Source: Acidobacteriota bacterium (GTDB lineage: Bacteria > Acidobacteriota > UBA6911). Taken from it: DNA of 64,000 nucleotides. Both the position numbers and the translations under genes were made by a program. Shown here piece by piece: positions 6,701 to 40,377 of this stretch (positions within the stretch are counted from its first letter, which is position 1; each line of letters opens with the position of its first letter). The stretch covers positions 3,712,001 to 3,776,000 of the forward strand of contig OY761556.1 in NCBI GenBank assembly GCA_963664705.1. The letters run 5' to 3'. The notes below the pieces were generated by a model. The model was given only the letters and a program-made list of their open reading frames with translations. It had not been told where the DNA came from and did not search any database.

Positions 6701-8743
6701 ATGCGGATCATCCTATCAGTGCTTTTATCGTTAGCACTTATTCCATCCATCCGCCAAAGGCCGGAGTGGAATAGATTTATTATCTTCGTCTGGCAGTACC
6801 AGACTGACGTTCTCCGCGACAAAGCACTCTACGAACAAGCGGGGCTCCATGCCTTCCATATTGACCGCGGCGACGGCGAGGACGAACTCGTCAAATTTTC
6901 AATCAAGAACAATTTTCCATATTATGTCGACCACGCCGCAGGAAAAGGCATTCTTTATCTTTCCAACTCGCTGCGCCCCCAGGTAACCGGAAAACGCGAT
7001 TTACTCATTCGCCCCCGTAGTCTTGCCGACCCAAACGTCATCAAGGAATTACAAGACCTGCTTCGCGCTAATATTTCCACCACGCAAAAGGGACTTGCTT
7101 ATGCATACGCCTTCGATGATGAGATCTCGCTGGGTTCATTCAACTCTCCTGCCGAGGTAGACGTTCACCCGCTATCCATTGCCCGGTATCACCAATGGCT
7201 TTCCGAGCGCTACGGCACGATTGCGCGACTAAATGCGTCTTGGGGTACATCCTACGAATCTTTCAACGATGTCCAACCGGTCAGCTTTGAAGACGTCCGC
7301 AAATCCGCCAATTCTCCTCCCTTCGCGAATTGGAATCTTTCGCGCTGGATGGAGTGGCGCCATTTTATGGACTATCAGTTTGCGAAGGTTCTCTCTGACC
7401 TGACCCAGTATGCAAATAAGCTGGATCCCCGAATTCCGGCAGGCTTTGTGGGCGGACAACAACCCTCGGCCTACGGGGGCTACGACTATGCCTATCTCAG
7501 CCGGGCGGTTCAATGGATGGAGGGGTCGGATGAATTGCTGCGGTCTTTCTGGAATCGTCCGCGGCGCCCACATGTTCAGACCTATAATATTACCGGTTCA
7601 GTCACAAGAGATACCTGGACACTCTGGTACCGCCTGGCTCACGGCGATCAGGCTGGGATTGCCTGGCCGGATGGCTGGTTTCGCACCGATTCATTGACCG
7701 GCAAGCGAATGCTGACAAAGGAAATCCAGGAACTTGCGCCGGTTTTTCGCGAAATTCAGGGCCCGGCAAGCGAATTTATCGTGAATCCGGACACCCATCT
7801 CGAGACCGATCCCATAGGGATTTACTATTCGCATCCCAGCATTCGGGCCGGGTGGGTAATGGATAGCATAACCCATGGCAGTACCTGGCCCAATCGCGCC
7901 TCCAGCCTTGATGATGAGAATTCGTCCTCGGCTCATCTCCGTTCCTCGTGGTGCCGACTGCTCGAGGATCTGGGGTATCAGTATGATTTCATAAGCTATC
8001 TGGACGTCCAGGAAAAAAAGATTGATTTGAATCAGCGTTTTAAGGTGATCGTCCTCCCACAGACCATTTGCCTCTCCGACGTTGAAGTTGAAGCACTGAG
8101 GTCATTTGTAAAATCCGGAGGAATTCTGATCGCGGACGATCTTACAGGCTTACTGACAGACACAGGACGCGGACGCAAACAGGGGGCTTTGGATGATCTC
8201 TTCGGAATTGTCCGTGACGAGTCCAAGGGATACCTGGACGGGAGAGGATTGACCGAGATCGACGCGGAATATGGAAACAAACCATTTCAGGATCGGCTTC
8301 GAGCCTATCCGGGGTCTCTGCACAAAGGACCACTGGTTGTTTTTGAAAGAGGCACGCAACAGAAAATCCAAAACAGCAGGGCAATTTACCTAAACCTGAC
8401 CCCGCTGGCTTATGAACACTGGCGGAATGATCGTCCGGGGCAAGAGTGGCGTACGCTGATAGGAAACACGCTGAAGGAATTGGGAGTGCCGCCTCGTATA
8501 ATGACGAATTTGCCCTTTGTGGAATCGCTGCTTTGGCGAAATGGCGATCGGTATGTGCTCGCCATTGTAAAAAACAGCGAGGGAGAGACTCAACGAACCG
8601 GGCAACAGATTCGTATTCAACTGGGAATAGATGCAAAAAATATCAGAAACATCCGAACCGGAAAGGCGTTAGCCGGGCCAGACTTTACAGACGAATTCAA
8701 TCCCTGCGAGGCAAATCTCTATGGTTTTACGGGGCCCAGGTAA
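6701..8743 (+). CDS. GH42-like glycoside hydrolase with beta-galactosidase trimerisation-type domain, probably exported
   Basis: WLSERYGTIARLNASWGTSY.SF GH42-like segment, AFDDEIS, and FKVIVLPQTICLSD..LRSFVKSGGILIAD; hydrophobic N-terminus. Confidence 0.7.
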   Translation: MRIILSVLLSLALIPSIRQRPEWNRFIIFVWQYQTDVLRDKALYEQAGLHAFHIDRGDGEDELVKFSIKNNFPYYVDHAAGKGILYLSNSLRPQVTGKRDLLIRPRSLADPNVIKELQDLLRANISTTQKGLAYAYAFDDEISLGSFNSPAEVDVHPLSIARYHQWLSERYGTIARLNASWGTSYESFNDVQPVSFEDVRKSANSPPFANWNLSRWMEWRHFMDYQFAKVLSDLTQYANKLDPRIPAGFVGGQQPSAYGGYDYAYLSRAVQWMEGSDELLRSFWNRPRRPHVQTYNITGSVTRDTWTLWYRLAHGDQAGIAWPDGWFRTDSLTGKRMLTKEIQELAPVFREIQGPASEFIVNPDTHLETDPIGIYYSHPSIRAGWVMDSITHGSTWPNRASSLDDENSSSAHLRSSWCRLLEDLGYQYDFISYLDVQEKKIDLNQRFKVIVLPQTICLSDVEVEALRSFVKSGGILIADDLTGLLTDTGRGRKQGALDDLFGIVRDESKGYLDGRGLTEIDAEYGNKPFQDRLRAYPGSLHKGPLVVFERGTQQKIQNSRAIYLNLTPLAYEHWRNDRPGQEWRTLIGNTLKELGVPPRIMTNLPFVESLLWRNGDRYVLAIVKNSEGETQRTGQQIRIQLGIDAKNIRNIRTGKALAGPDFTDEFNPCEANLYGFTGPR

Positions 8744-8816
8744 TTTTTTCGCTCCGGGCCTTGTGGGTTTGGTATTCGGGACCCAATGCATGCCCATATA
8801 TTTGCCCTAAAACAGT

Positions 8817-8845
8817 TTGCCCAATTAGGGGACAAGATCTAAAAT
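8817..8845 (+). promoter_or_regulatory. Probable sigma-70 promoter of the small membrane protein gene
   Basis: TTGCCC 8817-8822, 17 bp, TAAAAT 8840-8845. Confidence 0.55.
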
Positions 8846-8875
8846 CGCACCACACTCTCTATCCTGGAGGACAAA

Positions 8876-9076
8876 GTGAAAAATTACGGCACGGCAAGTC
8901 AAGTCTTCTTGTTGTTGGCTTTATTGGGCTGGATCGGTTGGATTGCAACGAGGTTTACAGGGCCGGTTTTCAGGATTTCCTACGAGGGATTTCTTGCCTT
9001 TACGAATACATGCCTGCTTTTTGCTATTGCCGCCAGTCTGATCGGACTGGGACTATCCCAGAAGAAAGCAGAATAG
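8876..9076 (+). CDS. Small two-TM membrane protein of unknown function
   Basis: GGAGG SD before GTG, two hydrophobic segments, basic tail. Confidence 0.7.
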   Translation: MKNYGTASQVFLLLALLGWIGWIATRFTGPVFRISYEGFLAFTNTCLLFAIAASLIGLGLSQKKAE

Positions 9077-9090
9077 GAAATTTAGAAAAG

Positions 9091-9120
9091 TTGACACCTA
9101 AGCATCCTTGCGCTTAGAAT
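9091..9120 (+). promoter_or_regulatory. Probable sigma-70 promoter of the peptide-PqqD-kinase-NTase operon
   Basis: TTGACA 9091-9096, 18 bp, TAGAAT 9115-9120. Confidence 0.55.
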
Positions 9121-9245
9121 AATTTACCCTCACTCATTTTGAAGATTTGACTGCGGATGTACGATAAGGAGGAAGTGCCTGCAGCCGAAGTATCCCCGTT
9201 ACGAGCGCACAACAAACCTAGCAGGCTGTAAAGGAGTGCACCCTG

Positions 9246-9488
9246 ATGTCGGAAGAACACGAGAAAAAAGCGGGCAAGGTGGCTGCGCCTGGACTTGACG
9301 AGGAAATCGTTGCAGCTAAAGAAGGACCAACAGGGACTCGGAGGGAGATCATCAAAGCCGGGATCGCGGCAGTACCTATCCTATTGACTCTAAAAAGCAA
9401 ACCGGCGTGGGCGAAAGAGGATAAGTACACGCATTCTGACAAAATGTCAGCAACCCATTTTTCGCATCATCCTGACGACGCCAAATAA
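9246..9488 (+). CDS. Putative precursor peptide with twin-arginine-like signal (80 aa)
   Basis: AAGGAG SD; TRREIIKAGIAAVPILLTLKSKPAWA (RR motif, h-region, AxA site) followed by KEDKYTHSDKMSATHFSHHPDDAK; ends 8 bp before the PqqD-like gene. Confidence 0.75.
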   Translation: MSEEHEKKAGKVAAPGLDEEIVAAKEGPTGTRREIIKAGIAAVPILLTLKSKPAWAKEDKYTHSDKMSATHFSHHPDDAK

Positions 9489-9496
9489 TTTATCTG

Positions 9497-9781
9497 ATGT
9501 CCCCGTTCGCAGACGAAGTCTGGAAAATATCAAGCGGGTCTCGCTTGCATTATCGAAAATGGCAGAATGAATACGTTTTCTATAATGCGGGATCTGGCGA
9601 TACGCATCTATTGGATGCGGTTTCTGGAGAGGTATTGAGCTATCTGGAAAAGAACCCTTCGACGGTTGAACAGATTTCAGCCGCACTGGGATTTCCGAAG
9701 GATCCGGCTCGACGGGATCTTCTCCCTCAGATAATCCACCATCTTCGCAATGCATCATTGATAGAGCTTGAGTTGCAGTGA
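9497..9781 (+). CDS. PqqD-family peptide chaperone (RRE), HPr-rel-A system type
   Basis: WQNEYVFYNAGSGDTHLLDAVSGEVL..L...LRNASLIE pattern of PqqD/RRE; overlaps the kinase start. Confidence 0.85.
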   Translation: MSPFADEVWKISSGSRLHYRKWQNEYVFYNAGSGDTHLLDAVSGEVLSYLEKNPSTVEQISAALGFPKDPARRDLLPQIIHHLRNASLIELELQ

Positions 9782-10674
9782 AGATCGGCGAAGCTACCTA
9801 TTCACAGCTGAAGAGCCTGCTGATCGATCAGGGCCTGCCATTTCAATCCGGCCCCTTTTCGATCAAACTTCATACGGACATCCCTGCAATTATCCAGCCC
9901 CTGCAAACCCTGTACTGGGACTATGCGATTGATCCACAAAAGGAATTCTTCGATTTCCATATTTCGGTGAAACGGGCAAAGGGCCTCCGCCGATGGTGGA
10001 AACCGCAGGTCCGCTTTCTCTTGCAGAACGAATCTTTCTTTTTTCCCTTTCCCATTAGCCTTTCGTATCCACTATTCGAATGGGGGCTCAACTGGTGTAT
10101 ATCCTCCCAGGCAAATCAGTATCTTATTATCCACTCGGCTGTGTTGGAACGTAACGGTCAGGCCATATTTCTAACCGCATCCCCGGGAGCGGGAAAAAGC
10201 ACTCTTGCCGCGGCATTGACATTCCGTGGTTGGAGGCTTCTCTCAGATGAACTGGCTCTTATCCGGCTGACGGACACTCGCGTTGCACCATTGGCCAGAC
10301 CCATCAGCATCAAGAATGACTCTATCCCAATAATCAGAAACTATGCGCCTGAAGCGGTAATCGGCCCTATCTGGCATGACCCGGAAGGCACGGTTGCGCA
10401 CATTCGTCCGCCCCGAGAATGCGTCGACAAAGCGAACGAGCTTGCGAGACCTTCTGTAATACTCTTTATGGCCTACAAGCCCGATTCAAACACCGAAGTG
10501 ACGCCCGTACCCAAATCAAGGGCGTTTTTGAGGATGGGCGAGAACGCCTTTAATTACAGTCTGCTGGGAACAGCCGGGTTTGAAACCATGGCGAACCTGA
10601 TTGAGGCATGCAATATTTACGAGTTTTATTACAGCGACCTCGATGATGCAGTAGCGCAACTTGCATCCCTATAG
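9778..10674 (+). CDS. HprK-related kinase A
   Basis: FEWGLNWCI, IHSAVLE, Walker A ASPGAGKSTL, GWRLLSDELALI, RPISIKN, NAFNYSLLG. Confidence 0.88.
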   Translation: MKIGEATYSQLKSLLIDQGLPFQSGPFSIKLHTDIPAIIQPLQTLYWDYAIDPQKEFFDFHISVKRAKGLRRWWKPQVRFLLQNESFFFPFPISLSYPLFEWGLNWCISSQANQYLIIHSAVLERNGQAIFLTASPGAGKSTLAAALTFRGWRLLSDELALIRLTDTRVAPLARPISIKNDSIPIIRNYAPEAVIGPIWHDPEGTVAHIRPPRECVDKANELARPSVILFMAYKPDSNTEVTPVPKSRAFLRMGENAFNYSLLGTAGFETMANLIEACNIYEFYYSDLDDAVAQLASL

Positions 10675-10683
10675 CGGGCATAT

Positions 10684-11754
10684 ATGGCAGAACAAGCAAA
10701 TCTTCTGATAAAAGCCCTCTGTGATCCGAAAGCTGCCGGGGATTTCAGCCTTTCGGAATGGGACAGGTGTATTCGAATGGCCCGGCATTCCAATGTCTTA
10801 TCCCGGCTTTCGTTTTTGCTCAAAGACCAGACAGAAAGCGGACAGATTGCCGCGCCAGTACGCGAGCATCTGCTGGCCGCACGAGTCGTTGCGGATCAAC
10901 ACGAGCGCATCATGCGATGGGAGGTGAGGCAGGTTGAGCGTGTGTTGGGGCCGATGGCCAGGCAGACAATCCTGCTTAAGGGTGCAGCTTATGTAACCCG
11001 CGGACTTCCGCCTGCTCGAGGACGACTCTACTCCGACCTCGACATAATGGTCCCACTGAGCGAAATTGACAGGGTTGAAACAGCGCTGCTTCAAAACGGG
11101 TGGGAGCACATTAAGCTCGAGCCCTATGACCAGAGATATTACAGGCAATGGATGCACGAATTGCCTCCATTACGACATGGTGTGCGAAAGACCTGCCTGG
11201 ACGTACATCACACAATCCTGCCCCGATCCGGCCGTCTTCGCCCTGCTCCGGATCTGCTTTTCAAGGCAGCTGCTCCAATGGAAGGAACATACTTTCGGAC
11301 GCTCTCTTCGGCCGATATGGTTCTGCACTCGGCCGCGCATCTATTCCAGGATGGAGATCTTGCCGGTGGTCTGAGAGATCTGACCGATCTGGATGATCTG
11401 CTCCGATACTTTGACCTGCAGGCGGGATTCTGGGATGATCTGGTTTCAAGAGGAGAAACGCTGGGCCTCTTGCGTCCCCTGTTCTACGCACTTCGGTACA
11501 CACGGAAAATATTGGGAACGCCAATACCGGAATCAGTACGGATCAGGGCAGAGTCCGGATCACCACCGGCAATGGCTCTTAAAATAATGGATCACGCCGT
11601 ATCCCGGGCGCTCACTCCGCTGGAACCGGTTGCCAATACTCCAGGGGCAGGGTTTGCTCGATGGTTTCTCTACGTTCGTTCACACTATCTGCGCATGCCC
11701 CCTACTCTGCTCTTTGTTCATCTTCTGCGCAAAGCGGTCAGGCGTGCCCATTAG
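10684..11754 (+). CDS. Nucleotidyltransferase family protein (NTP_transf_5-like)
   Basis: ILLKGAAY, GRLYSDLDIMV (DxD), YYRQWMHELPP, LDVHH, LRDLTDLD. Confidence 0.88.
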   Translation: MAEQANLLIKALCDPKAAGDFSLSEWDRCIRMARHSNVLSRLSFLLKDQTESGQIAAPVREHLLAARVVADQHERIMRWEVRQVERVLGPMARQTILLKGAAYVTRGLPPARGRLYSDLDIMVPLSEIDRVETALLQNGWEHIKLEPYDQRYYRQWMHELPPLRHGVRKTCLDVHHTILPRSGRLRPAPDLLFKAAAPMEGTYFRTLSSADMVLHSAAHLFQDGDLAGGLRDLTDLDDLLRYFDLQAGFWDDLVSRGETLGLLRPLFYALRYTRKILGTPIPESVRIRAESGSPPAMALKIMDHAVSRALTPLEPVANTPGAGFARWFLYVRSHYLRMPPTLLFVHLLRKAVRRAH

Positions 11755-11777
11755 AAATGGCGGCAGGTACTGATCTT

Positions 11778-12668
11778 CTAGGAACTCAGGGCGGGCGTTT
11801 GATTTGAATACAATGGCAGCCTTTGAACAACTTCCGTAACCGTTCCGAAACGGAAGTCCGCAAGCAGATGCTCCAGCTTCTTTCGCATTCCGCTCAGATT
11901 CGTATAGTGCCGCAGTCTGGACTTTAAAGGAGCGTCGATTTGCGGCTGATCCGGATCGATCTCCCAGGGGTGAAAATAAACCATGGCCGGCTGCCGTTCG
12001 ACATTGTTGATTTCGCGGATCGCCCAGCGCGTAACTGCATACGGCAGGAGACGCAGATACCCGCCGCCAGCCGCTCCGATGTTATGGTTTAGTTTCCGCA
12101 TCGTGGAAGGGGGAAATTCCAATATGTGGTTTCGCCAGTGGGGAAATCGGCTTGATTCCGGCATTCCATACAGATCGTGATGCACGGGAAAAATGGAGGA
12201 GTCTATCCGGATGCCCACTTCGACGAGAATATCCAGCGCCCACAGCGTATCCCGGGCAATTGAAAAGCTTGGCGCCCGGTAGCAGAGAACAGGTTTCTGA
12301 CCCTGATCTGTCAACAGCCCCAGGGAACGTCGTGTATCTTCGCGAAATTGCTCGGGCGTCAGGCGCCGGATGTGCTGGTGGGCATAGCTGTGGCAGCCGA
12401 TCTCATGGCCGGCATTTGAAATCCTGCGCACCAGTGCAGGGGATTTTTCGGCAACCCAGCCAAGGACAAAAAAAGTCGCGGTGGTATTGTGCGCGGCCAG
12501 CAGATCCAGGATATTGTCGACATTCCGTTCAACCCGCAGTTGATATCCGGACCAGGCTGAGGGCGACACATGCTTTGCAAAAGCTTCAACGTGAAAATAG
12601 TCTTCTACGTCAATGCTGAACGCATTCAGGATTTTTTTGTCGGCTGAAATGAGATCCGTGTTCATCAT
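11778..12668 (-). CDS. XrtA-system polysaccharide deacetylase (TIGR03006/DUF3473-like)
   Basis: NAFSIDVEDYFH, ATFFVLGWVAE, HEIGCHSYAH, YRAPSFSI, GGGYLRL, YFHPWEIDP; start placed at MMN 12668. Confidence 0.92.
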   Translation of the reverse strand: MMNTDLISADKKILNAFSIDVEDYFHVEAFAKHVSPSAWSGYQLRVERNVDNILDLLAAHNTTATFFVLGWVAEKSPALVRRISNAGHEIGCHSYAHQHIRRLTPEQFREDTRRSLGLLTDQGQKPVLCYRAPSFSIARDTLWALDILVEVGIRIDSSIFPVHHDLYGMPESSRFPHWRNHILEFPPSTMRKLNHNIGAAGGGYLRLLPYAVTRWAIREINNVERQPAMVYFHPWEIDPDQPQIDAPLKSRLRHYTNLSGMRKKLEHLLADFRFGTVTEVVQRLPLYSNQTPALSS

Positions 12669-21212: not shown

Positions 21213-23108
21213 TTGATTCATCTAAGCGCATTTGTCCCTAATCCATCAAATCAACCAATTCCCGACCACCGCATCCAACAATGGAAACAGAATTGTGTCT
21301 CCGCAAGCCATGACAATCGCTGGATAAAAGCCGGGGACCGCTATTTCCTGCTGATTCAGGGAGACTGCAGTCTGGAGCATTTTGTTTACAGCTCTGATGC
21401 AGTCGATTTGATCTGCTACACAGATCTCCTCGGCTCCGGGTCCGGCGAGGATTTTGCCGAAGCAAATCAAAATCCAGCATCATATCTGGCGCATCGATAC
21501 GAAAAAATGGGCGAAGCGTTTGCCAGGGAGCTTCGAGGATGGTTCGGCGTTATTCTGTATGACCACAAGGAAAAGCGGCTGAAGGCCTGGACAGATCACT
21601 TCGGTGTGCGCAGGCTGGTATACCAAAAAACATCTCAGGGATTCGGCATGGCATCGGATTTGCGGCTTCTGAATGCCTTCTTTGATCGTAAGCCTGAAGT
21701 GGAGCCGGCATCCATTCTTGAATACCTCCAATATACCTGCATCCCGGCTCCACACACCATATACAAAGGGATTTCGCGGCTGGAGCCTGGTCATTGGATA
21801 ACCTCTGATCCAGATTCGATTTCGCAGCCCTTCTGGGGCTTGAATTACCAGGAAACCAAAGGGCGGAATCAGCAAGCCTGGGAGGAGAGCACATACCAGG
21901 CCATCGAATCGGCCGTGGCCCGATCGTCAAAGGTCATGGACAACTCGCAGCACATCGGCTGTTTTCTCAGTGGAGGAACCGACAGCAGTTCGGTAAGCGG
22001 ACTGGTGGGGAAAATCACGCAGGCATCTCCCACAACCATATCCATTGGATTTGAAGATCCGCGATATAACGAAATCGAATACGCCCGGATTGCGGCAAAA
22101 CATTTTAAAACGGATCACCACGAATATTTTGTAAAGCCGGCCGATATCCTGAGTCTTCTGACTCGTATCTACGATGTCTACGATGAGCCATTCGGCAATT
22201 CATCTATCGTTCCAGCCTTCTTCTGCTCAAAAACAGGCCTGGAAAATGGCGTCACCCACATGCTCGCCGGTGATGGCGGAGATGAGCTGTTTGGCGGCAA
22301 TCAAAGATACGGAAGTGACAGGCTGTTCCAGCGCTATCACTGGATTCCCAGGTTTATCCGCAAAGGAGCGCTGGAGCCTCTGGTCGCAGGATCTTCCCGC
22401 CTGCTGAAGATCGACAAACTGGATCTCATTCAGCGCTATATCCGCAGGGCCAATATCCCTTTGCCTGATCGCTACTTCTCTTACGACTTCATTTCGTCAG
22501 TCAATCGAGCGGAGCTGTTCTCGAATTCCCTTTTATGCGATCTCAAAGACATTGATCCCCTGGCTGTCGCCAGAAAGCACTTCCGGAATGCAGTAGCCAC
22601 CGAAGATCTGAACCGCTGGCTTCAGCTTGACTTGAAAATAACGATTACGGATAACGACATACGTAAAGTAACAGTAATGGCCGAACTGGCGGGAACCGTT
22701 CCCAGGTATCCGCTCCTGGATCCGGGGCTGGCGGAATTTGCAGCCACCATTCCATCCGCACTGAAAGTAAAGGGGATGCAGCTGCGGTACCTGTTCAAAC
22801 AGGCCATGAGCAGGATTTTGCCCCGGGAGATTCTGACCAAGACAAAACATGGATTTGGGCTGCCCTTCAGTACCTGGTTGCTTGAAGATCCGAATCTGCA
22901 TACCTTTGTTTTCGATATTCTCGGTTCAGGTGCCGCCCGCCAGCGCGGCTATCTCCGCCCCGACATGCTTGAATGGCTGTGGACGCGCTATCAGACAGAA
23001 AGCAAGGTCTATTATGGCGATGTGCTCTGGACCTTTCTGATGCTTGAATTGTGGCACCGTTCCCTTGACAGGCAAATGAGTGACTTCAACACCATGGGAT
23101 CCAATTGA
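21213..23108 (+). CDS. Asparagine-synthetase-like amide ligase without N-terminal catalytic Cys
   Basis: FLSGGTDSS PP-loop, DEPFGNSS, AGDGGDELFGG, KHGFGLP; no MCGI start. Confidence 0.88.
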   Translation: MIHLSAFVPNPSNQPIPDHRIQQWKQNCVSASHDNRWIKAGDRYFLLIQGDCSLEHFVYSSDAVDLICYTDLLGSGSGEDFAEANQNPASYLAHRYEKMGEAFARELRGWFGVILYDHKEKRLKAWTDHFGVRRLVYQKTSQGFGMASDLRLLNAFFDRKPEVEPASILEYLQYTCIPAPHTIYKGISRLEPGHWITSDPDSISQPFWGLNYQETKGRNQQAWEESTYQAIESAVARSSKVMDNSQHIGCFLSGGTDSSSVSGLVGKITQASPTTISIGFEDPRYNEIEYARIAAKHFKTDHHEYFVKPADILSLLTRIYDVYDEPFGNSSIVPAFFCSKTGLENGVTHMLAGDGGDELFGGNQRYGSDRLFQRYHWIPRFIRKGALEPLVAGSSRLLKIDKLDLIQRYIRRANIPLPDRYFSYDFISSVNRAELFSNSLLCDLKDIDPLAVARKHFRNAVATEDLNRWLQLDLKITITDNDIRKVTVMAELAGTVPRYPLLDPGLAEFAATIPSALKVKGMQLRYLFKQAMSRILPREILTKTKHGFGLPFSTWLLEDPNLHTFVFDILGSGAARQRGYLRPDMLEWLWTRYQTESKVYYGDVLWTFLMLELWHRSLDRQMSDFNTMGSN

Positions 23109-24046: not shown

Positions 24047-25174
24047 GTGGCCTCAGATAGAATTCGGATTCTTCATATTCTTCACGCCTTTTCGGCCGGC
24101 GGGCTCGAAAATGGAATTGTAAACATCATTAATCATTCACCGGATCATCTTGAGCATGAATTATGCTTGCTCACCAGGGGCGGCGAATTTCTGAAGCGGC
24201 TTGCCCGCCCGATCCCAGTTCATGAATTGCACAAGCGGGAAGGTAATGATCTGAGAGCGCTGGGAAGGCTTTGCCAATTACTGCATCATAAGAATTTCGA
24301 TATAGTCCATACCAGAAACTGGGCAGCATTTGACGGCGTGCTTGCAGCCATAACGACGCCATCCGTAACGCTGATTCACGGCGAACATGGTCGGGACATC
24401 CAGGACCCCCAGGGATTAAACAAGCGCCGAAATTTCCTGCGCAGACTGGCGGGGCATCGAATCCATCGCTTTGTGGCAGTATCCTCAAACCTTTATGAAT
24501 GGCTCTGGAAAACAGTTCAAATCCCCAGGAAAAAGATAACGCTGATTCACAATGGCGTGGATACGGCAAAATTCCGACGAACTTCATCCTTAAGCTTGCG
24601 CAAGGAATTTGCAATCCAGGACAGTGAGTTTGTGGTGGGAACAGTGGCTCGCCTGGATCCTGTTAAGGACCATGAGGGCATGATAGAGGCAGTCCGGCTG
24701 CTCAATCAGTCCGGAAATAACATACGCCTCATTATCGTTGGGGAAGGCCCCAATCGCAGCTCACTGGAAAAACTCATCCGCGGGTGGCAAGACGGCCCCA
24801 CGCCCATTCTAACGGGGTATAGGGAAGATACTTTGGACTTCTACGGGCTGTTCGATGTATTTCTCCTGACTTCCTATGCGGAAGGGATGTCCAATACGCT
24901 TCTCGAGGCAATGTCCTGTATGCTCCCTGTGATCTGCACTCCCGTTGGAGCGAATGTCGAAGTCGTCGAGCACAATGTGACGGGAATGATCGTCCCCGTC
25001 GCGGCATCGGCAGAACTTGCAGCAAGTATTTCATCGTATAAAGGATCGGAAGGAATGCGGGCTTCTCATGCGGAAAACGCACGTAATTTCATCGAGAAGA
25101 ATTTTTCGCTCAACAAAATGGTAAACACTTACCTAAATCTCTATCAATCCGGGGGATCATGCGCGACTTTTTGA
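24047..25174 (+). CDS. GT4 glycosyltransferase (TIGR03088-like)
   Basis: GGLENGIVNIIN, IVHTRN, HGEHGRD, EGMSNTLLEAM. Confidence 0.9.
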   Translation: MASDRIRILHILHAFSAGGLENGIVNIINHSPDHLEHELCLLTRGGEFLKRLARPIPVHELHKREGNDLRALGRLCQLLHHKNFDIVHTRNWAAFDGVLAAITTPSVTLIHGEHGRDIQDPQGLNKRRNFLRRLAGHRIHRFVAVSSNLYEWLWKTVQIPRKKITLIHNGVDTAKFRRTSSLSLRKEFAIQDSEFVVGTVARLDPVKDHEGMIEAVRLLNQSGNNIRLIIVGEGPNRSSLEKLIRGWQDGPTPILTGYREDTLDFYGLFDVFLLTSYAEGMSNTLLEAMSCMLPVICTPVGANVEVVEHNVTGMIVPVAASAELAASISSYKGSEGMRASHAENARNFIEKNFSLNKMVNTYLNLYQSGGSCATF

Positions 25175-26457
25175 TCATTGCCATTGTATTCCTGAGCCTT
25201 CCGGTAGGTGTATTTCAGCCCTTTTATGGAATACTGGTTTATGCCTGGATCAGCTACATGTATCCGCACATGCTGGCATGGTCTTACGCGCAGACCGCTC
25301 CCATCGCCAAGCTCGCAGCCTTATCCGTCCTGGCAGGCATAATAATCAGACGAAACGGCAGCCTTGCGGCCCTGAAAGAGAGAGAGATGAAATGCATGCT
25401 GATTCTGTTTCTCTTCTTCACTCTCTCCAGCTTTTTTGCCTTCTACCCTGACGCAGCTTGGGGAAAGTGGCAGGATATGGCCAAGGTAATATTGATGTCC
25501 TTCGTCATATCCGCATTTCTGACAGACCGCAGAAAACTCAAAATTTTTCTAATTGTTGTGGCCTTGTCGCTCGGCTTTTATGGGTTTAAAGGAGGGATCT
25601 TCAGTCTCGCAACACAGGGGCAGTTCATGGTTTGGGGTCCCGGAAATTCAATCATCGGCGCCAACAATAATCTTGGCCTCGCTTTGTGCATGGTGTTGCC
25701 CATGTTCTGGTACCTCGCCAAAGCCGAAACGCGTCAATGGCTGAAACGTGGATTGCAGGTATGTGCTCTTCTGACCATTCCCGCGATTATGTTTACCTAT
25801 TCAAGAGGGAGCTTTGTGGGACTGGCCGTTGTGCTCGCTTTGATTATCATCAAGAGCAAGCATCGCATACTTTCAGCGGCTTTAGCTGTTTTGTTATCCC
25901 TGGCAGTGATTGGATATCTCCCGCAGCGCTGGACCGAACGGACCGGCACCACCATCGATTATGAAGCCGACAGCTCAGCAATGTCGCGCCTGGACAACTG
26001 GAAATTCTGCTGGAAACTTGTTCTGGACCGTCCGCTGGTAGGGGGAGGATTCAATTTCTTTACAACGGAAACCCTCAGTCGCTATGACCCGGAATTTGTT
26101 CGAAAATACGGTAAGGCATGGGATACCCATAATATCTATTTCGGCATATTGGCCGGCCACGGTTTCCCGGCATTTGGTGGTTTTATCGCCATGATCGTTC
26201 TGACATTTCTAAGTTGCTGTAAACTTAAACGGGAGAGCAAAGGAAACCCTCAACTTGTATGGATAGCTCAATATTCAGACATGATCCAGATTGCACTTAT
26301 GGGCTGGGCGGTCAACGGTATGTTTGTAAACATGGAGTACTTTGAACTTCCCTATCACCTGATCGCCGTCACCGCAGCGCTAAAGGTCATGCTTCGTCAG
26401 GAGATAGCCGGCACTGTCATCGATGCAGAGCATCCGATCCAGCATGCCGCGGCATAG
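25159..26457 (+). CDS. Putative O-glycosylation ligase/polymerase, exosortase A-associated (TIGR03097-like)
   Basis: MRD...YAWISYMYPH, GFYGFKGG, NNNLGL, TYSRG, DSSAMSRL..W, PLVGGGF, HNIYF; multi-TM. Confidence 0.9.
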   Translation: MRDFLIIAIVFLSLPVGVFQPFYGILVYAWISYMYPHMLAWSYAQTAPIAKLAALSVLAGIIIRRNGSLAALKEREMKCMLILFLFFTLSSFFAFYPDAAWGKWQDMAKVILMSFVISAFLTDRRKLKIFLIVVALSLGFYGFKGGIFSLATQGQFMVWGPGNSIIGANNNLGLALCMVLPMFWYLAKAETRQWLKRGLQVCALLTIPAIMFTYSRGSFVGLAVVLALIIIKSKHRILSAALAVLLSLAVIGYLPQRWTERTGTTIDYEADSSAMSRLDNWKFCWKLVLDRPLVGGGFNFFTTETLSRYDPEFVRKYGKAWDTHNIYFGILAGHGFPAFGGFIAMIVLTFLSCCKLKRESKGNPQLVWIAQYSDMIQIALMGWAVNGMFVNMEYFELPYHLIAVTAALKVMLRQEIAGTVIDAEHPIQHAAA

Positions 26458-38526: not shown

Positions 38527-40377
38527 ATGAGCCTATTCCTGGTCGTTACAGCAGATCCGAAGCTGGCCAATTCCAGTCAATCGATTTTTGAATCGCTTGT
38601 TCAGGCAGGCCAGTTGCTAACGGGTCATGCGCCTGCGTCGAAACATAAAACCGGAAACACGCAAATCGCAATCTTCCCGAGAATTAATGGATCCAGCCCT
38701 AAACTGGTTATGGACCAGGAGACGGGAAACTGGCTGCTTCCCGCCGGGCAATGGTTCCACAGTTCAGGGTATGGCTGCGGGTCAGAAGAAGCACTCCTTC
38801 GACGCTACCTGGAAATCGGCGCGGAACAAATGCATCGGGAACTAGAGGGCTTCTTTGCCATTGCACACGGCAATGAGCTGACAAATGAGGTCAGTGTTCT
38901 GACGGACGTAATCGGCAGCTTCCATTGTTTTTCACGATCATGGCCCGGAATTACCGCCATATCCAGCTCATCGCTGCTTCTCGCATCCATTGGAGCCGAT
39001 TCCCTCGATATGGAAGCACTGGCAGAATTCCTGGGCACCGGAATCATTTATGAAAACCGCTCGCTGCATCAGAGCATACGCAAGCTGGGCCCGGCATCAA
39101 GAATACTTTACCGGAACGGCAGACCTCAAAGCGCTCATCGGTATTGGGATCTGAGCGCCTTTGCTTCCAAACCTCTTTCTGATGCTGCCGCACTGGATTC
39201 ATTGCATGAGGAACTCCTTGTCATAGGGAAACGAATATCCTCCATTTATGCCCGCCCGCTGTGCGATCTGACGGGGGGGTTCGATTCCCGCGCTCTGCTG
39301 GCGTCCCTCTTGCCGTCCGCAATGCCACTGACCACCGTCGTCACCGGTTCCGAGCAAAGCCCCGATGTTCAGATATCAAGAGCACTCGCCGGGCTAAAAG
39401 GACTGCCGCACATCCATTTAAACCCGGCAATGGAAGGAATTGTTTCGGAGGTCACCCCAGTTCTGCCCCTGACCGACGGTGAGTATGATGCGGTGGAATA
39501 TAGCAGAGTGTTTAAGGTTCATGGGACCCTATCGGCCAATTTCGATATCAGCCTGAACGGATCATTCGGTGAGCTCGCCCGAGGCTATTGGTGGGAGCTT
39601 CTCTTTCCGCATTTGGGAGACGCTAAAGAAATTGATGCAGGGAAGATTGCCAGGCTGCGGTTTGCGGCGGGCAGTTTTGATTCAGGCCTCTTCTCCGGCA
39701 AGGCCGATTTTAGCCTGGCCGACCATTTCACGGAAGTCATCAAGCGCACCAACAAGGGACTGGAATCGGCTCCAAACAGCCTGCAAATGGACAACCTGTA
39801 CCTCATGATGAGAATGCAGAGCTGGCAGGGACGTATAGCAAGCAGCACAGACCGAATCTGGCCTTGCCTTTCTCCATTCATATTCCGCTCCGTTCTGGAG
39901 GTAATTCTCCGTACGAATCCTGCGCTGCGACGACGCGGATTATTTGTGCGAAAATACCTCGCTTTGTTTGACAGGCAATTGGCCGAATTCCCTCTTGAAC
40001 ACGGATACCCGGCACTGCCGGTGTCGCCAGGCACTTTGTATCGATTCTGGCCTATCATTCCTTTGTATGCAGGGAAAGTAACAAGGAAGATACTGGCAAA
40101 AGCAGGCGTTCAGCGCTCTGTACACAAGACGCAATCGAAAACACCGGCACGATTAAGACTGTGGCAGGATGCAAAGATACGGGATACGTTGGATATCTCG
40201 ACCATGAAGCTGGCCTCGATGCTTCAATACGACCATCTTCGCGCATTCCTGGAACAATCCAAACAGTCTGCATTTGGATACGACGCACAATGGGCCAGGC
40301 TACTGACGGTCGAGCTGGCGTTACGGAGACTCGAAGAAATTAAGTGTTCCATCCATCAGCCCCTATCGGAGAGGTAG
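38527..40377 (+). CDS. Second, divergent asparagine-synthetase-like protein
   Basis: DLTGGFDSR PP-loop variant, NGSFGELARG, SPF; no N-terminal Cys. Confidence 0.8.
   Translation: MSLFLVVTADPKLANSSQSIFESLVQAGQLLTGHAPASKHKTGNTQIAIFPRINGSSPKLVMDQETGNWLLPAGQWFHSSGYGCGSEEALLRRYLEIGAEQMHRELEGFFAIAHGNELTNEVSVLTDVIGSFHCFSRSWPGITAISSSSLLLASIGADSLDMEALAEFLGTGIIYENRSLHQSIRKLGPASRILYRNGRPQSAHRYWDLSAFASKPLSDAAALDSLHEELLVIGKRISSIYARPLCDLTGGFDSRALLASLLPSAMPLTTVVTGSEQSPDVQISRALAGLKGLPHIHLNPAMEGIVSEVTPVLPLTDGEYDAVEYSRVFKVHGTLSANFDISLNGSFGELARGYWWELLFPHLGDAKEIDAGKIARLRFAAGSFDSGLFSGKADFSLADHFTEVIKRTNKGLESAPNSLQMDNLYLMMRMQSWQGRIASSTDRIWPCLSPFIFRSVLEVILRTNPALRRRGLFVRKYLALFDRQLAEFPLEHGYPALPVSPGTLYRFWPIIPLYAGKVTRKILAKAGVQRSVHKTQSKTPARLRLWQDAKIRDTLDISTMKLASMLQYDHLRAFLEQSKQSAFGYDAQWARLLTVELALRRLEEIKCSIHQPLSER

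Follow-up and report, generated by a model that had tools for sequence, protein, structure and literature searches.

A conserved twin-arginine-type leader gene accompanies the HPr-rel-A kinase cassette and likely encodes its missing substrate

The 64,000-nucleotide stretch of Acidobacteriota DNA considered here (positions 3,712,001 to 3,776,000 of contig OY761556.1, assembly GCA_963664705.1; hereafter the window) carries a unit of four plus-strand open reading frames (ORFs). They encode an 80-amino-acid peptide, a discrete RRE (recognition element of RiPPs, peptides made by the ribosome and modified after translation), an HprK-related kinase and a nucleotidyltransferase-fold enzyme of family PF14907, the last three making up an HPr-rel-A cassette. 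The leader family to which the 80-aa peptide belongs pairs near one-to-one with this cassette, seen from both directions, and because nearly every related unit examined has a neighbouring gene with this signal, the peptide is likely to be the missing substrate of the cassette enzymes. In the reading that we favour with moderate confidence, the RRE would hold the leader, the kinase would phosphorylate serine in the core, the PF14907 enzyme would decorate the phosphate, the twin-arginine translocation (Tat) pathway would export the product and signal peptidase I would release it.

The association was counted over 86 kinase loci, comprising the best 80 of 426 kinase relatives and six loci from the window's own phylum. 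The RRE adjoins the kinase in 82 of the 86, the transferase is present in 84, and the three-gene order is kept in most. Five loci with less than 1100 nt upstream were left out of the leader count; among the remaining 81 a leader ORF was detected by hidden Markov model (HMM) in 79, directly upstream in 76. An upstream ORF of the form RR..LLTL.S.P..A, which a preceding sequence-only reading of this DNA had expected beside homologous kinases, is thus conserved. The exceptions are L024, with a wider gap; L041 and L074, with the leader downstream on the other strand; and L086, with a divergent leader recognized by eye.

The first leader HMM was seeded on ORFs picked as upstream of the kinase, which weakens this count, and less circular checks were therefore run. 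A leader-only HMM was built without the window ORF and without L083-L088 (73 of 78 rows kept); it gave the window ORF 43.5 bits, whereas no other six-frame segment of the 6.9-Mb genome, be it an ordinary Tat signal, exceeded 15.5. Because this held-out model singles out the window ORF in its genome, the 80-aa ORF stands beyond chance; a genome-wide search found no further copy of the leader there. Among plasmid cassettes held out from the model (Vibrio, Sphingomonas and Leisingera), an RR-leader ORF annotated as 'hypothetical' lies upstream in three of three, and a fourth plasmid match (Methylosinus) has no annotated cassette. Across 401 genomes of the phylum the leader profile reached an E value below 1e-5 in eight, six of them kinase genomes (six of the seven such genomes, E <= 5.1e-6). 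In G171 the leader peptide lies between PqqD and a different HPr-like kinase; G225 carries an orphan leader (L094:1471-1752) for which no kinase was found with the queries tried, a point against strict pairing. Six further genomes of the phylum gave weaker matches, mostly to ordinary long Tat-type proteins. In the reverse direction, 80 metagenome loci were picked solely by a YxxP-type peptide of a sister subfamily; 53 of them hold an RRE, kinase or transferase, as do 26 of the 28 contigs of at least 4 kb. Because the sister kinases form a separate clade, this test covers the design and not this exact subfamily. None of these sets of loci consists of mutually independent cases. Separately, genome G147 has a second leader-family copy away from any cassette (L103:1336-1665), a possible trans substrate.

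The window cassette sits in an exopolysaccharide (EPS) locus of the XrtA/PEP-CTERM kind, where exosortase A, PrsK/PrsR, Wza/Wzc and an O-ligase are also encoded. Of 52 loci of at least 12 kb, 30 have an XrtA-associated gene within 6 kb (26 when Wza, Wzc or autokinase alone are counted) and 43 have nucleotide-sugar and EPS genes near the cassette. Six of the seven kinase genomes of the phylum encode an XrtA-type Wzc, on the same contig within ~62 kb in five, as against 115 of the 401 genomes overall. The link to EPS drawn in the sequence-only reading is therefore frequent, but it is not obligatory: the kinase query matched nothing in 109 of those 115 genomes, and two plasmid cassettes, those of Vibrio and Sphingomonas, lie outside EPS loci. 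The EPS association is real and optional.

A kinase followed by a nucleotidyltransferase is a common logic of sugar activation. On that logic the target of both enzymes could be a sugar or some other small molecule of the EPS pathway, with the small ORF as a co-inherited secreted protein; the placement inside an XrtA EPS locus, the nearby Wza, Wzc or autokinase genes and locus L007, which keeps kinase and transferase beside housekeeping genes without RRE or leader, would all suit such a role. Yet a discrete RRE of lasso type accompanies the kinase almost throughout, the constant partner is the leader gene and not the EPS genes, even in non-EPS contexts, most genomes with an XrtA-type Wzc do without the kinase, and in two published studies the related kinases act on peptides (PMC13381572, PMC10368454). 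We regard a small-molecule substrate as very unlikely.

Other genes of these loci may be recorded here. On the Sphingomonas plasmid (L117:5218-11751) the cassette lies just upstream of glmU-glmS, which provide UDP-N-acetylglucosamine, a possible hint at the sugar donor. The window gene at 25159-26457 (+) scores above cut-off for TIGR03097, the putative O-glycosylation ligase that belongs to the exosortase A system; that it could act on exported Ser-rich acceptors, including the 80-aa peptide, is speculation. Two AsnB-like amidotransferases (window 21213-23108 and 38527-40377, both +) match lasso-cyclase models below cut-off and are read as EPS-locus enzymes; a lasso pathway using them was rejected, given for the first of them a score of 120 against a cut-off of 525 (lass_lactam_cya) and a distance of ~9.5 kb, and given the lack of co-inheritance.

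The 80-aa peptide runs from T31-R-R-E-I-I-K through an uncharged stretch, A38 to L49, to K-S-K-P-A54-W-A56, and its 24-aa remainder holds three Ser (64, 68 and 73), two Thr, one Tyr and four His, a layout and composition that we re-read from the sequence as previously described. No family in Pfam or NCBIfam matches it. Tat substrates have an S/T-R-R-x-F-L-K-like consensus near the N-terminus, with which T-R-R-E-I-I-K agrees, and an uncharged h-region of about 13 or more residues is the TatFind-type threshold. The consensus of the family leader is RRxFxKxGxxAxPVxL-T-L-x-S-x-P-x-x-A, with RR invariant in 65 of 65 rows of one alignment (A2); over 80 family leaders, RR is found in 79, Phe at +3 in 60 and Lys at +5 in 46. 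Positions were counted from A(-1) = A56 with the T/S at -9 as anchor, which missed two rows. A signal-peptidase-type site is evident in this register, with Ala or Gly at -1 in 51/52, 7/7 and 56/57 leaders of three sets (114 of 116 anchored rows) and small residues at -3; the window leader has P44 at -13, L46 at -11, T48 at -9 and Ala at -16. A P-hydrophobic x3-[TS]-hydrophobic pattern was found in 40 of the 80 family leaders and in none of 45 controls, which were regex-picked Tat-like proteins of the window genome, and a looser pattern in 68 of 80 versus 3 of 45. The leader is distinct from ordinary Tat signals in that its h- and c-regions are conserved in sequence.

Export by Tat with cleavage after A56 is probable by analogy. 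A chain decorated in the cytoplasm needs post-translational export, which would be a reason for Tat, and the window genome has two TatC genes, which supports the route that had been proposed. The companion proposal, that no dedicated protease or transporter belongs to the cassette, also held: two S26 peptidase queries from the window genome matched in 0 of 86 loci, although a distant SipW type could be missed by them, and an ABC-ATPase regex matched in only 1 of 86. An AsnB-like gene, as a sign of a cyclase, was likewise found in only one. The peptide could instead be a substrate that is neither exported nor cleaved, in which case the RR leader would do no more than serve recognition or anchor the uncut peptide in the membrane. 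Several features of the leader weigh on that side: the Tat motif is unusual in that Leu follows RRxF at +4 in only 8 of 80 leaders; the window peptide has an uncharged run of 12 residues, where the family median is 14 and that of controls 18 (a run of at least 13 is present in 65 of the 80 leaders of the family and in 37 of the 45 controls); a KR subfamily exists among the leader relatives; and of 23 family members scanned with Tat-signal HMMs one passes the TIGR01409 cut-off and none PF10518, the window peptide matching neither. What speaks for export is the near-constant Ala or Gly at -1 with small -3 residues, the RR invariant in alignment A2, the recurrence of the passenger domain described below in large surface-repeat-bearing proteins (SdrD-B, DUF11 or DUF7507) and the fact that no other exporter travels with the cassette. 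A retained, uncut peptide is in our judgement decidedly improbable.

Structure prediction added little for the core, an AlphaFold model of the peptide having a predicted local distance difference test (pLDDT) score of 57.6 with a single low-confidence helix at 32-50. In the Atlas the peptide falls in unnamed clusters only, with Tat-signal-bearing families at 0.87-0.89, to be taken as a lead only, and one long-form cluster is automatically named 'Tat pathway signal sequence domain protein'. Two other accounts of the peptide were rejected. It is not a truncated long form, since its stop lies only 8 nt from the RRE gene and six of six loci of the phylum are also short; and a lipoprotein reading fails as there is no Cys after the site in the window peptide.

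Most relatives, and most of the products in Proteobacteria, are proteins of 140-310 aa in which the leader is followed by an S-x3-S-x3-S segment and a folded domain; all six loci from the window's phylum encode short forms. Across 38 mature long forms C4, S8, S12, W32 and N88 never vary, and conservation of S16 is at least 90%. Within their first 30 residues, 33 of 52 long forms (duplicates removed) have the S-x3-S-x3-S motif, as against a mean of 2.5 and a maximum of 8 in 500 shuffles; with relaxed x3-4 spacing the number is 40 of 52 against 4.4. The stricter motif is also found in 26 of 57 short homologues (shuffle mean 2.0), a partly biased figure, this set having been partly selected on the core. 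The conserved Ser spacing anticipated from the window alone is thereby real for the long forms but incomplete among the short ones: the relaxed motif occurs in only three of seven short cassette-linked cores (four allowing Thr), and in two of the seven, L087 and L088, Ser is absent from the first 20 positions.

These serine-poor cores invite the suggestion that the true target is the Thr/Ser at -9 of the leader, its modification or RRE binding serving as a Tat proofreading switch with the core a mere passenger. This hydroxyl is the best conserved, being present in all anchored rows, a figure to be read knowing that it served as the anchor and that two rows were missed. The strong enrichment of Ser spacing in the core points the other way, as does the modification of the core by known RRE-kinase pairs (PMC13381572, PMC10368454), and we give a leader target the least credence of all the alternatives considered.

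The folded passenger of the long forms is a helical domain of ~115 aa with no Pfam family, for which 4747 representatives were found at E <= 0.001 (L033:5254-5664 family; P0125, P0205, P0264, P0268). A long-form model has a pLDDT of 88.2 overall, the serines lying in a low-confidence stretch of the first 20 residues that precedes the confident helical domain; no fold match was obtained for it (best Foldseek E 0.87, best VIA Z 3.8), which does not imply that the fold is new. By HMMER search the domain is also repeated in the large proteins with SdrD-B, DUF11 or DUF7507 repeats, and a word index returned no forms above 327 aa, where HMMER did find the domain in large proteins. When the mature-part profile was used alone, 113 of 126 full-length proteins of 170-300 aa carried the leader at 20 bits or more, and 10 of 12 matches over 300 aa lacked it. 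Judged from these sequences, leader plus Ser segment behaves as a tag that carries either nothing, as in the window, or a domain of extracellular type. The short-peptide RiPP that had been proposed is accordingly the minimal form in the window and not the rule: because most members have a folded passenger domain, the arrangement suggests a modification tag for exported products and not a short-peptide RiPP only, and since the Proteobacterial leader and Ser segment are fused to a folded domain, the cassette would work like a portable 'modify, then export' tag. The further idea of a metal-binding product finds no comparative support, as alignments show the four His residues to be particular to the window peptide; a His-based metal binder was rejected for this lack of conservation among relatives.

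The enzymes appear intact. The kinase motifs H119, G137-x-G-K140-S-T and D157-E158 are invariant in 44 of 44 relative rows, with a His-Lys-Asp spacing (21, 17) equal to that of H148, K169 and D186 in BsfK, residues found to be important there (PMC10368454), and L98-K-G, D118, D120 and D173 of the transferase are invariant in 42 of 42. Among solved structures, the RRE family profile comes closest to two lasso RREs, TfuB1 and TbiB1 (E about 1e-3); a profile search against solved structures found none for the transferase, which belongs to the same Pfam family (PF14907) as LppN and PbaN. The kinase is patchily distributed, in 0 of 29 congeneric genomes and 7 of the 401 of the phylum, and in a quick tree the window kinase clusters with L083 and rows labelled Acidobacteriota. 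Partial correlations for co-evolution were 0.14 between leader and RRE, 0.14 between leader and kinase and 0.22 between leader and transferase. The same genome holds a second cassette (G000:C1:6217040-6222300, minus strand; L109:5040-10296; L002) in the order GT2, GT2, PqqD, HPr-like kinase, GT2 and a related transferase; its PqqD is lasso_PqqD_Bac-like, below cut-off, and a Tat-leader precursor was not found nearby.

In the mechanism that we propose, the RRE would grip the PxL-T-L stretch in the hydrophobic region of the signal, the kinase would phosphorylate one or more core serines in the cytoplasm, the PF14907 enzyme would add sugar to phosphoserine, and the product would leave via Tat, be cut after A56 by the housekeeping signal peptidase I and act at the cell surface, often beside XrtA-type polysaccharide. 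The models for this analogy are LppB/LppK, BsfB1/BsfK and PsmK/PsmN. LppB and LppK belong to the linear polyphosphorylated peptides (LPPs; lppA/K/B/S/D/N) of Bacillota (Popov et al., 2026, PMC13381572). In that system LppK, labelled TIGR04352 in the supplement, phosphorylates core Ser3 of the precursor LppA, so the RRE-guided Ser phosphorylation assumed in the sequence-only reading has precedent, and its statement that no substrate was known for an HPr-rel-A kinase is superseded in print by LppA. The label, like that of lppN as PF14907, may be a best hit below cut-off, and the likeness to LppK and LppN drawn here is one of family labels, not of direct sequence comparison. BsfB1 likewise stimulates BsfK (PMC10368454). 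On these analogies phosphorylation of core serine is the step we hold most probable.

That the leader is also what the RRE recognizes is suggested by the same comparison. P-13 and V-11 of LppA insert into the RRE (PMC13381572), and because Pro and Leu stand at -13 and -11 in the window leader, its Tat signal likely doubles as RRE leader. A simple transfer of the lasso binding mode is argued against by the Ala, in place of Tyr or Trp, at -16 of the window leader, a position at which Y-16A weakened binding of LppA to LppB (PMC13381572), and by the long TIGR04352-linked leaders, which have Pro at -13 in 53% and Gly in 36%.

The large sister subfamily used for the reverse search (L120-L199, L095/L108) fits the LppA register (Y-16, P-13, early Ser) better than the window does and may be easier to test. 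Its leader reads RRxFxKKAAYxxPxILTL..P.FA, with Tyr at -16; G-S at +3/+4 and tails of low complexity follow. Profile comparison finds it homologous to the window family (97.5%); GS at +3/+4 was found in 59 of 59 sister loci, a biased count, the loci having been ranked by likeness to a query containing GS. At L197/L198 a single RRE shares 7 kb with precursors, kinases and transferases, two of each. The Leisingera plasmid cassette (L118:5182-7573) differs again, with a longer leader, a Lys/Arg-rich tail and a kinase whose N-terminus, by eye, resembles a fused RRE, and with a transferase and a polysaccharide export gene after the kinase.

The chemistry of the transferase is the least secure step. 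PsmN is required for hexose on the phosphoserine of pseudomycoidin, seen as +162 and +324 Da on phosphate (PMC6993621), and this is the sole in-cell product of an enzyme of this type in the sources available. Since deletion of lppN had no visible effect, and LppN gave no product, in the heterologous host B. subtilis (PMC13381572), PsmN is the one basis for PF14907 chemistry, and its authors leave open that PsmN merely makes the substrate for a host glycosyltransferase (PMC6993621). With substrate and kinase unchanged, the PF14907 enzyme might then transfer a nucleotide, placing nucleoside monophosphate (NMP) onto phosphoserine or polyphosphate, or might make a co-substrate; its intact nucleotidyltransferase motif would allow this, whereas the hexose on phosphate and the nucleotide-sugar and EPS genes near 43 of the 52 longer loci favour a sugar. 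This alternative as a whole is unlikely, and whether hexose and not NMP is what the enzyme transfers is, by analogy, close to an even call, leaning slightly against. A fuller picture joins all of these elements: a single sequence would act at once as leader for the RRE, as Tat signal and as the site for signal peptidase; a tag of three serines would be phosphorylated and glycan-primed in the cytoplasm and exported by Tat, whether on the peptide by itself or on a folded domain of the surface; and it would serve as anchor or primer for XrtA-type polysaccharide, widespread in Gram-negatives. Taken in its entirety that picture is doubtful.

The gene unit itself is as earlier described, four coupled genes with gaps of 8, -4 and 9 bp borne out by the sequence and ORF list (Table 1). 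A promoter of its own, also claimed, is plausible from the sequence and not more, because promoter-like sites are no commoner than in shuffles (5 sites against 3.3 +/- 1.9); the sigma70-like candidate 125 nt upstream of the unit is nonetheless present. A 6-bp inverted repeat, CTAAGC / GCTTAG, noted by eye within its 18-bp spacer (window 9098-9117), may be an operator or chance, and a hydrophobic 66-aa ORF with no Pfam or NCBIfam match lies just 5' of the promoter (window 8876-9076, +). Two contig runs were compared for a coding test and, being identical or short near-identical pieces, gave no usable substitutions.

Table 1. Features of the four-gene unit (window coordinates; aa, amino acids)
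Feature	Position	Strand	Basis and remarks
Sigma70-like promoter candidate TTGACA-N18-TAGAAT	9091..9120	+	11/12 consensus matches, best site in 8700-12000
Shine-Dalgarno-like AAGGAG	9231..9236	+	9 nt 5' of ATG; read from sequence
80-aa precursor (putative), unnamed family	9246..9488	+	No Pfam or NCBIfam match; leader HMM 43.5 bits
Leader, aa 1-56: charged N-region, RR at aa 32-33 (9339-9344), P44, L46, T48, A54-W-A56	9246..9413	+	Family alignment; predicted cleavage
Predicted 24-aa core, S64-x3-S68-x4-S73 (9435-9437, 9447-9449, 9462-9464)	9414..9485	+	Candidate phosphorylation sites, from family motif enrichment
Discrete RRE, PqqD-fold (TIGR04353), 94 aa	9497..9781	+	40.3 bits vs cut-off 35
HprK-related kinase A (TIGR04352), 298 aa; H119, G137-x-G-K140-S141-T142, D157-E158	9778..10674	+	353.4 bits vs cut-off 200
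PF14907 nucleotidyltransferase-fold enzyme, 356 aa; L98-K-G, D118-x-D120, D173	10684..11754	+	180.9 bits vs cut-off 31.2

For an orphan NCBIfam system that, judged from the 426 kinase relatives, occurs in hundreds of species, these observations offer a testable substrate, candidate sites (S64, S68 and S73) and a route of export. Small substrates of this kind could settle the function of PF14907, which the LPP study could not (PMC13381572). If the favoured reading is right, this would be a RiPP-type pathway whose leader is the Tat signal, with housekeeping machinery in place of the LPP peptidase and exporter; and should the tag prove portable, to which the occurrence of short and long forms points, proteins of choice could be phosphorylated and exported by means of it. 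Because the chemistry has published precedent, the surprise is limited.

Among known systems the window cassette is a member of HPr-rel-A, which we take to be defined by NCBIfam as three genes (TIGR04352 + TIGR04353 + PF14907): kinase and RRE score above cut-off and the PF14907 transferase adjoins them. The fourth, leader gene has no Pfam or NCBIfam family, and RefSeq plasmid records annotate it as 'hypothetical'. Neither the Tat-leader gene nor the HPr-rel-A system was found described in a literature search that covered sources other than subscription journals and preprint supplements, and a term search of the RRE-Finder paper (PMC7470986) gave no mention.

Bufferins resemble the proposed pathway in being RiPP precursors that use the general export pathway and signal peptidase (PMC11626156). 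They differ in having a Sec signal that is dispensable for modification on overexpression and in their multinuclear non-haem iron oxidase (MNIO) chemistry on Cys (PMC11626156), whereas the window peptide has no Cys and its four genes give no MNIO match. Closer are the phosphorylated lasso peptides (PsmK/PsmN and BsfK/BsfB1/BsfN), which share an HprK-type kinase, an uncharacterized transferase and a discrete RRE, with the His/Lys/Ser/Asp spacing as in BsfK; by contrast, the window system has no macrolactam cyclase, no B2 protease among the window ORFs scanned and no ABC exporter, and a linear product with a Tat-type leader is predicted.

The nearest likeness is to the LPPs as described in PMC13381572. 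Both combine an RRE that is discrete with a kinase of HprK-like type and a PF14907 transferase, and have no cyclase, both have precursors of 35-200 aa with a conserved N-terminus and variable C-terminus in polysaccharide loci, and in both, P-13 and a hydrophobic -11 residue precede a cut of the kind made by type I signal peptidase. The SpI-like LppS (TIGR02228), however, is absent among the window ORFs scanned, the nearest PF10502 gene being ~38 kb away, and the MsbA-like exporter LppD was not found among them; the LPP leader reads YxxPxVLxHQxIxFETxxS, where the window has A-16, P-13, L-11 and T-L-K-S-K-P-A-W-A in a twin-arginine signal ending A-x-A; and the first core Ser is at +8, not at +3 as in LppA and BsfA, which counts against a close parallel. 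The words 'Tat' and 'signal peptide' do not appear in the main text of the LPP paper, nor 'twin-arginine' or 'Tat' in its supplements. Window-type systems, moreover, occur in Gram-negative phyla, and fusion to a folded domain is frequent among them. Without a dedicated peptidase, an ABC exporter or the LPP leader consensus, the window cassette is therefore not an LPP; it appears from its sequence to be an LPP-like phosphorylation module whose leader has merged with a Tat signal.

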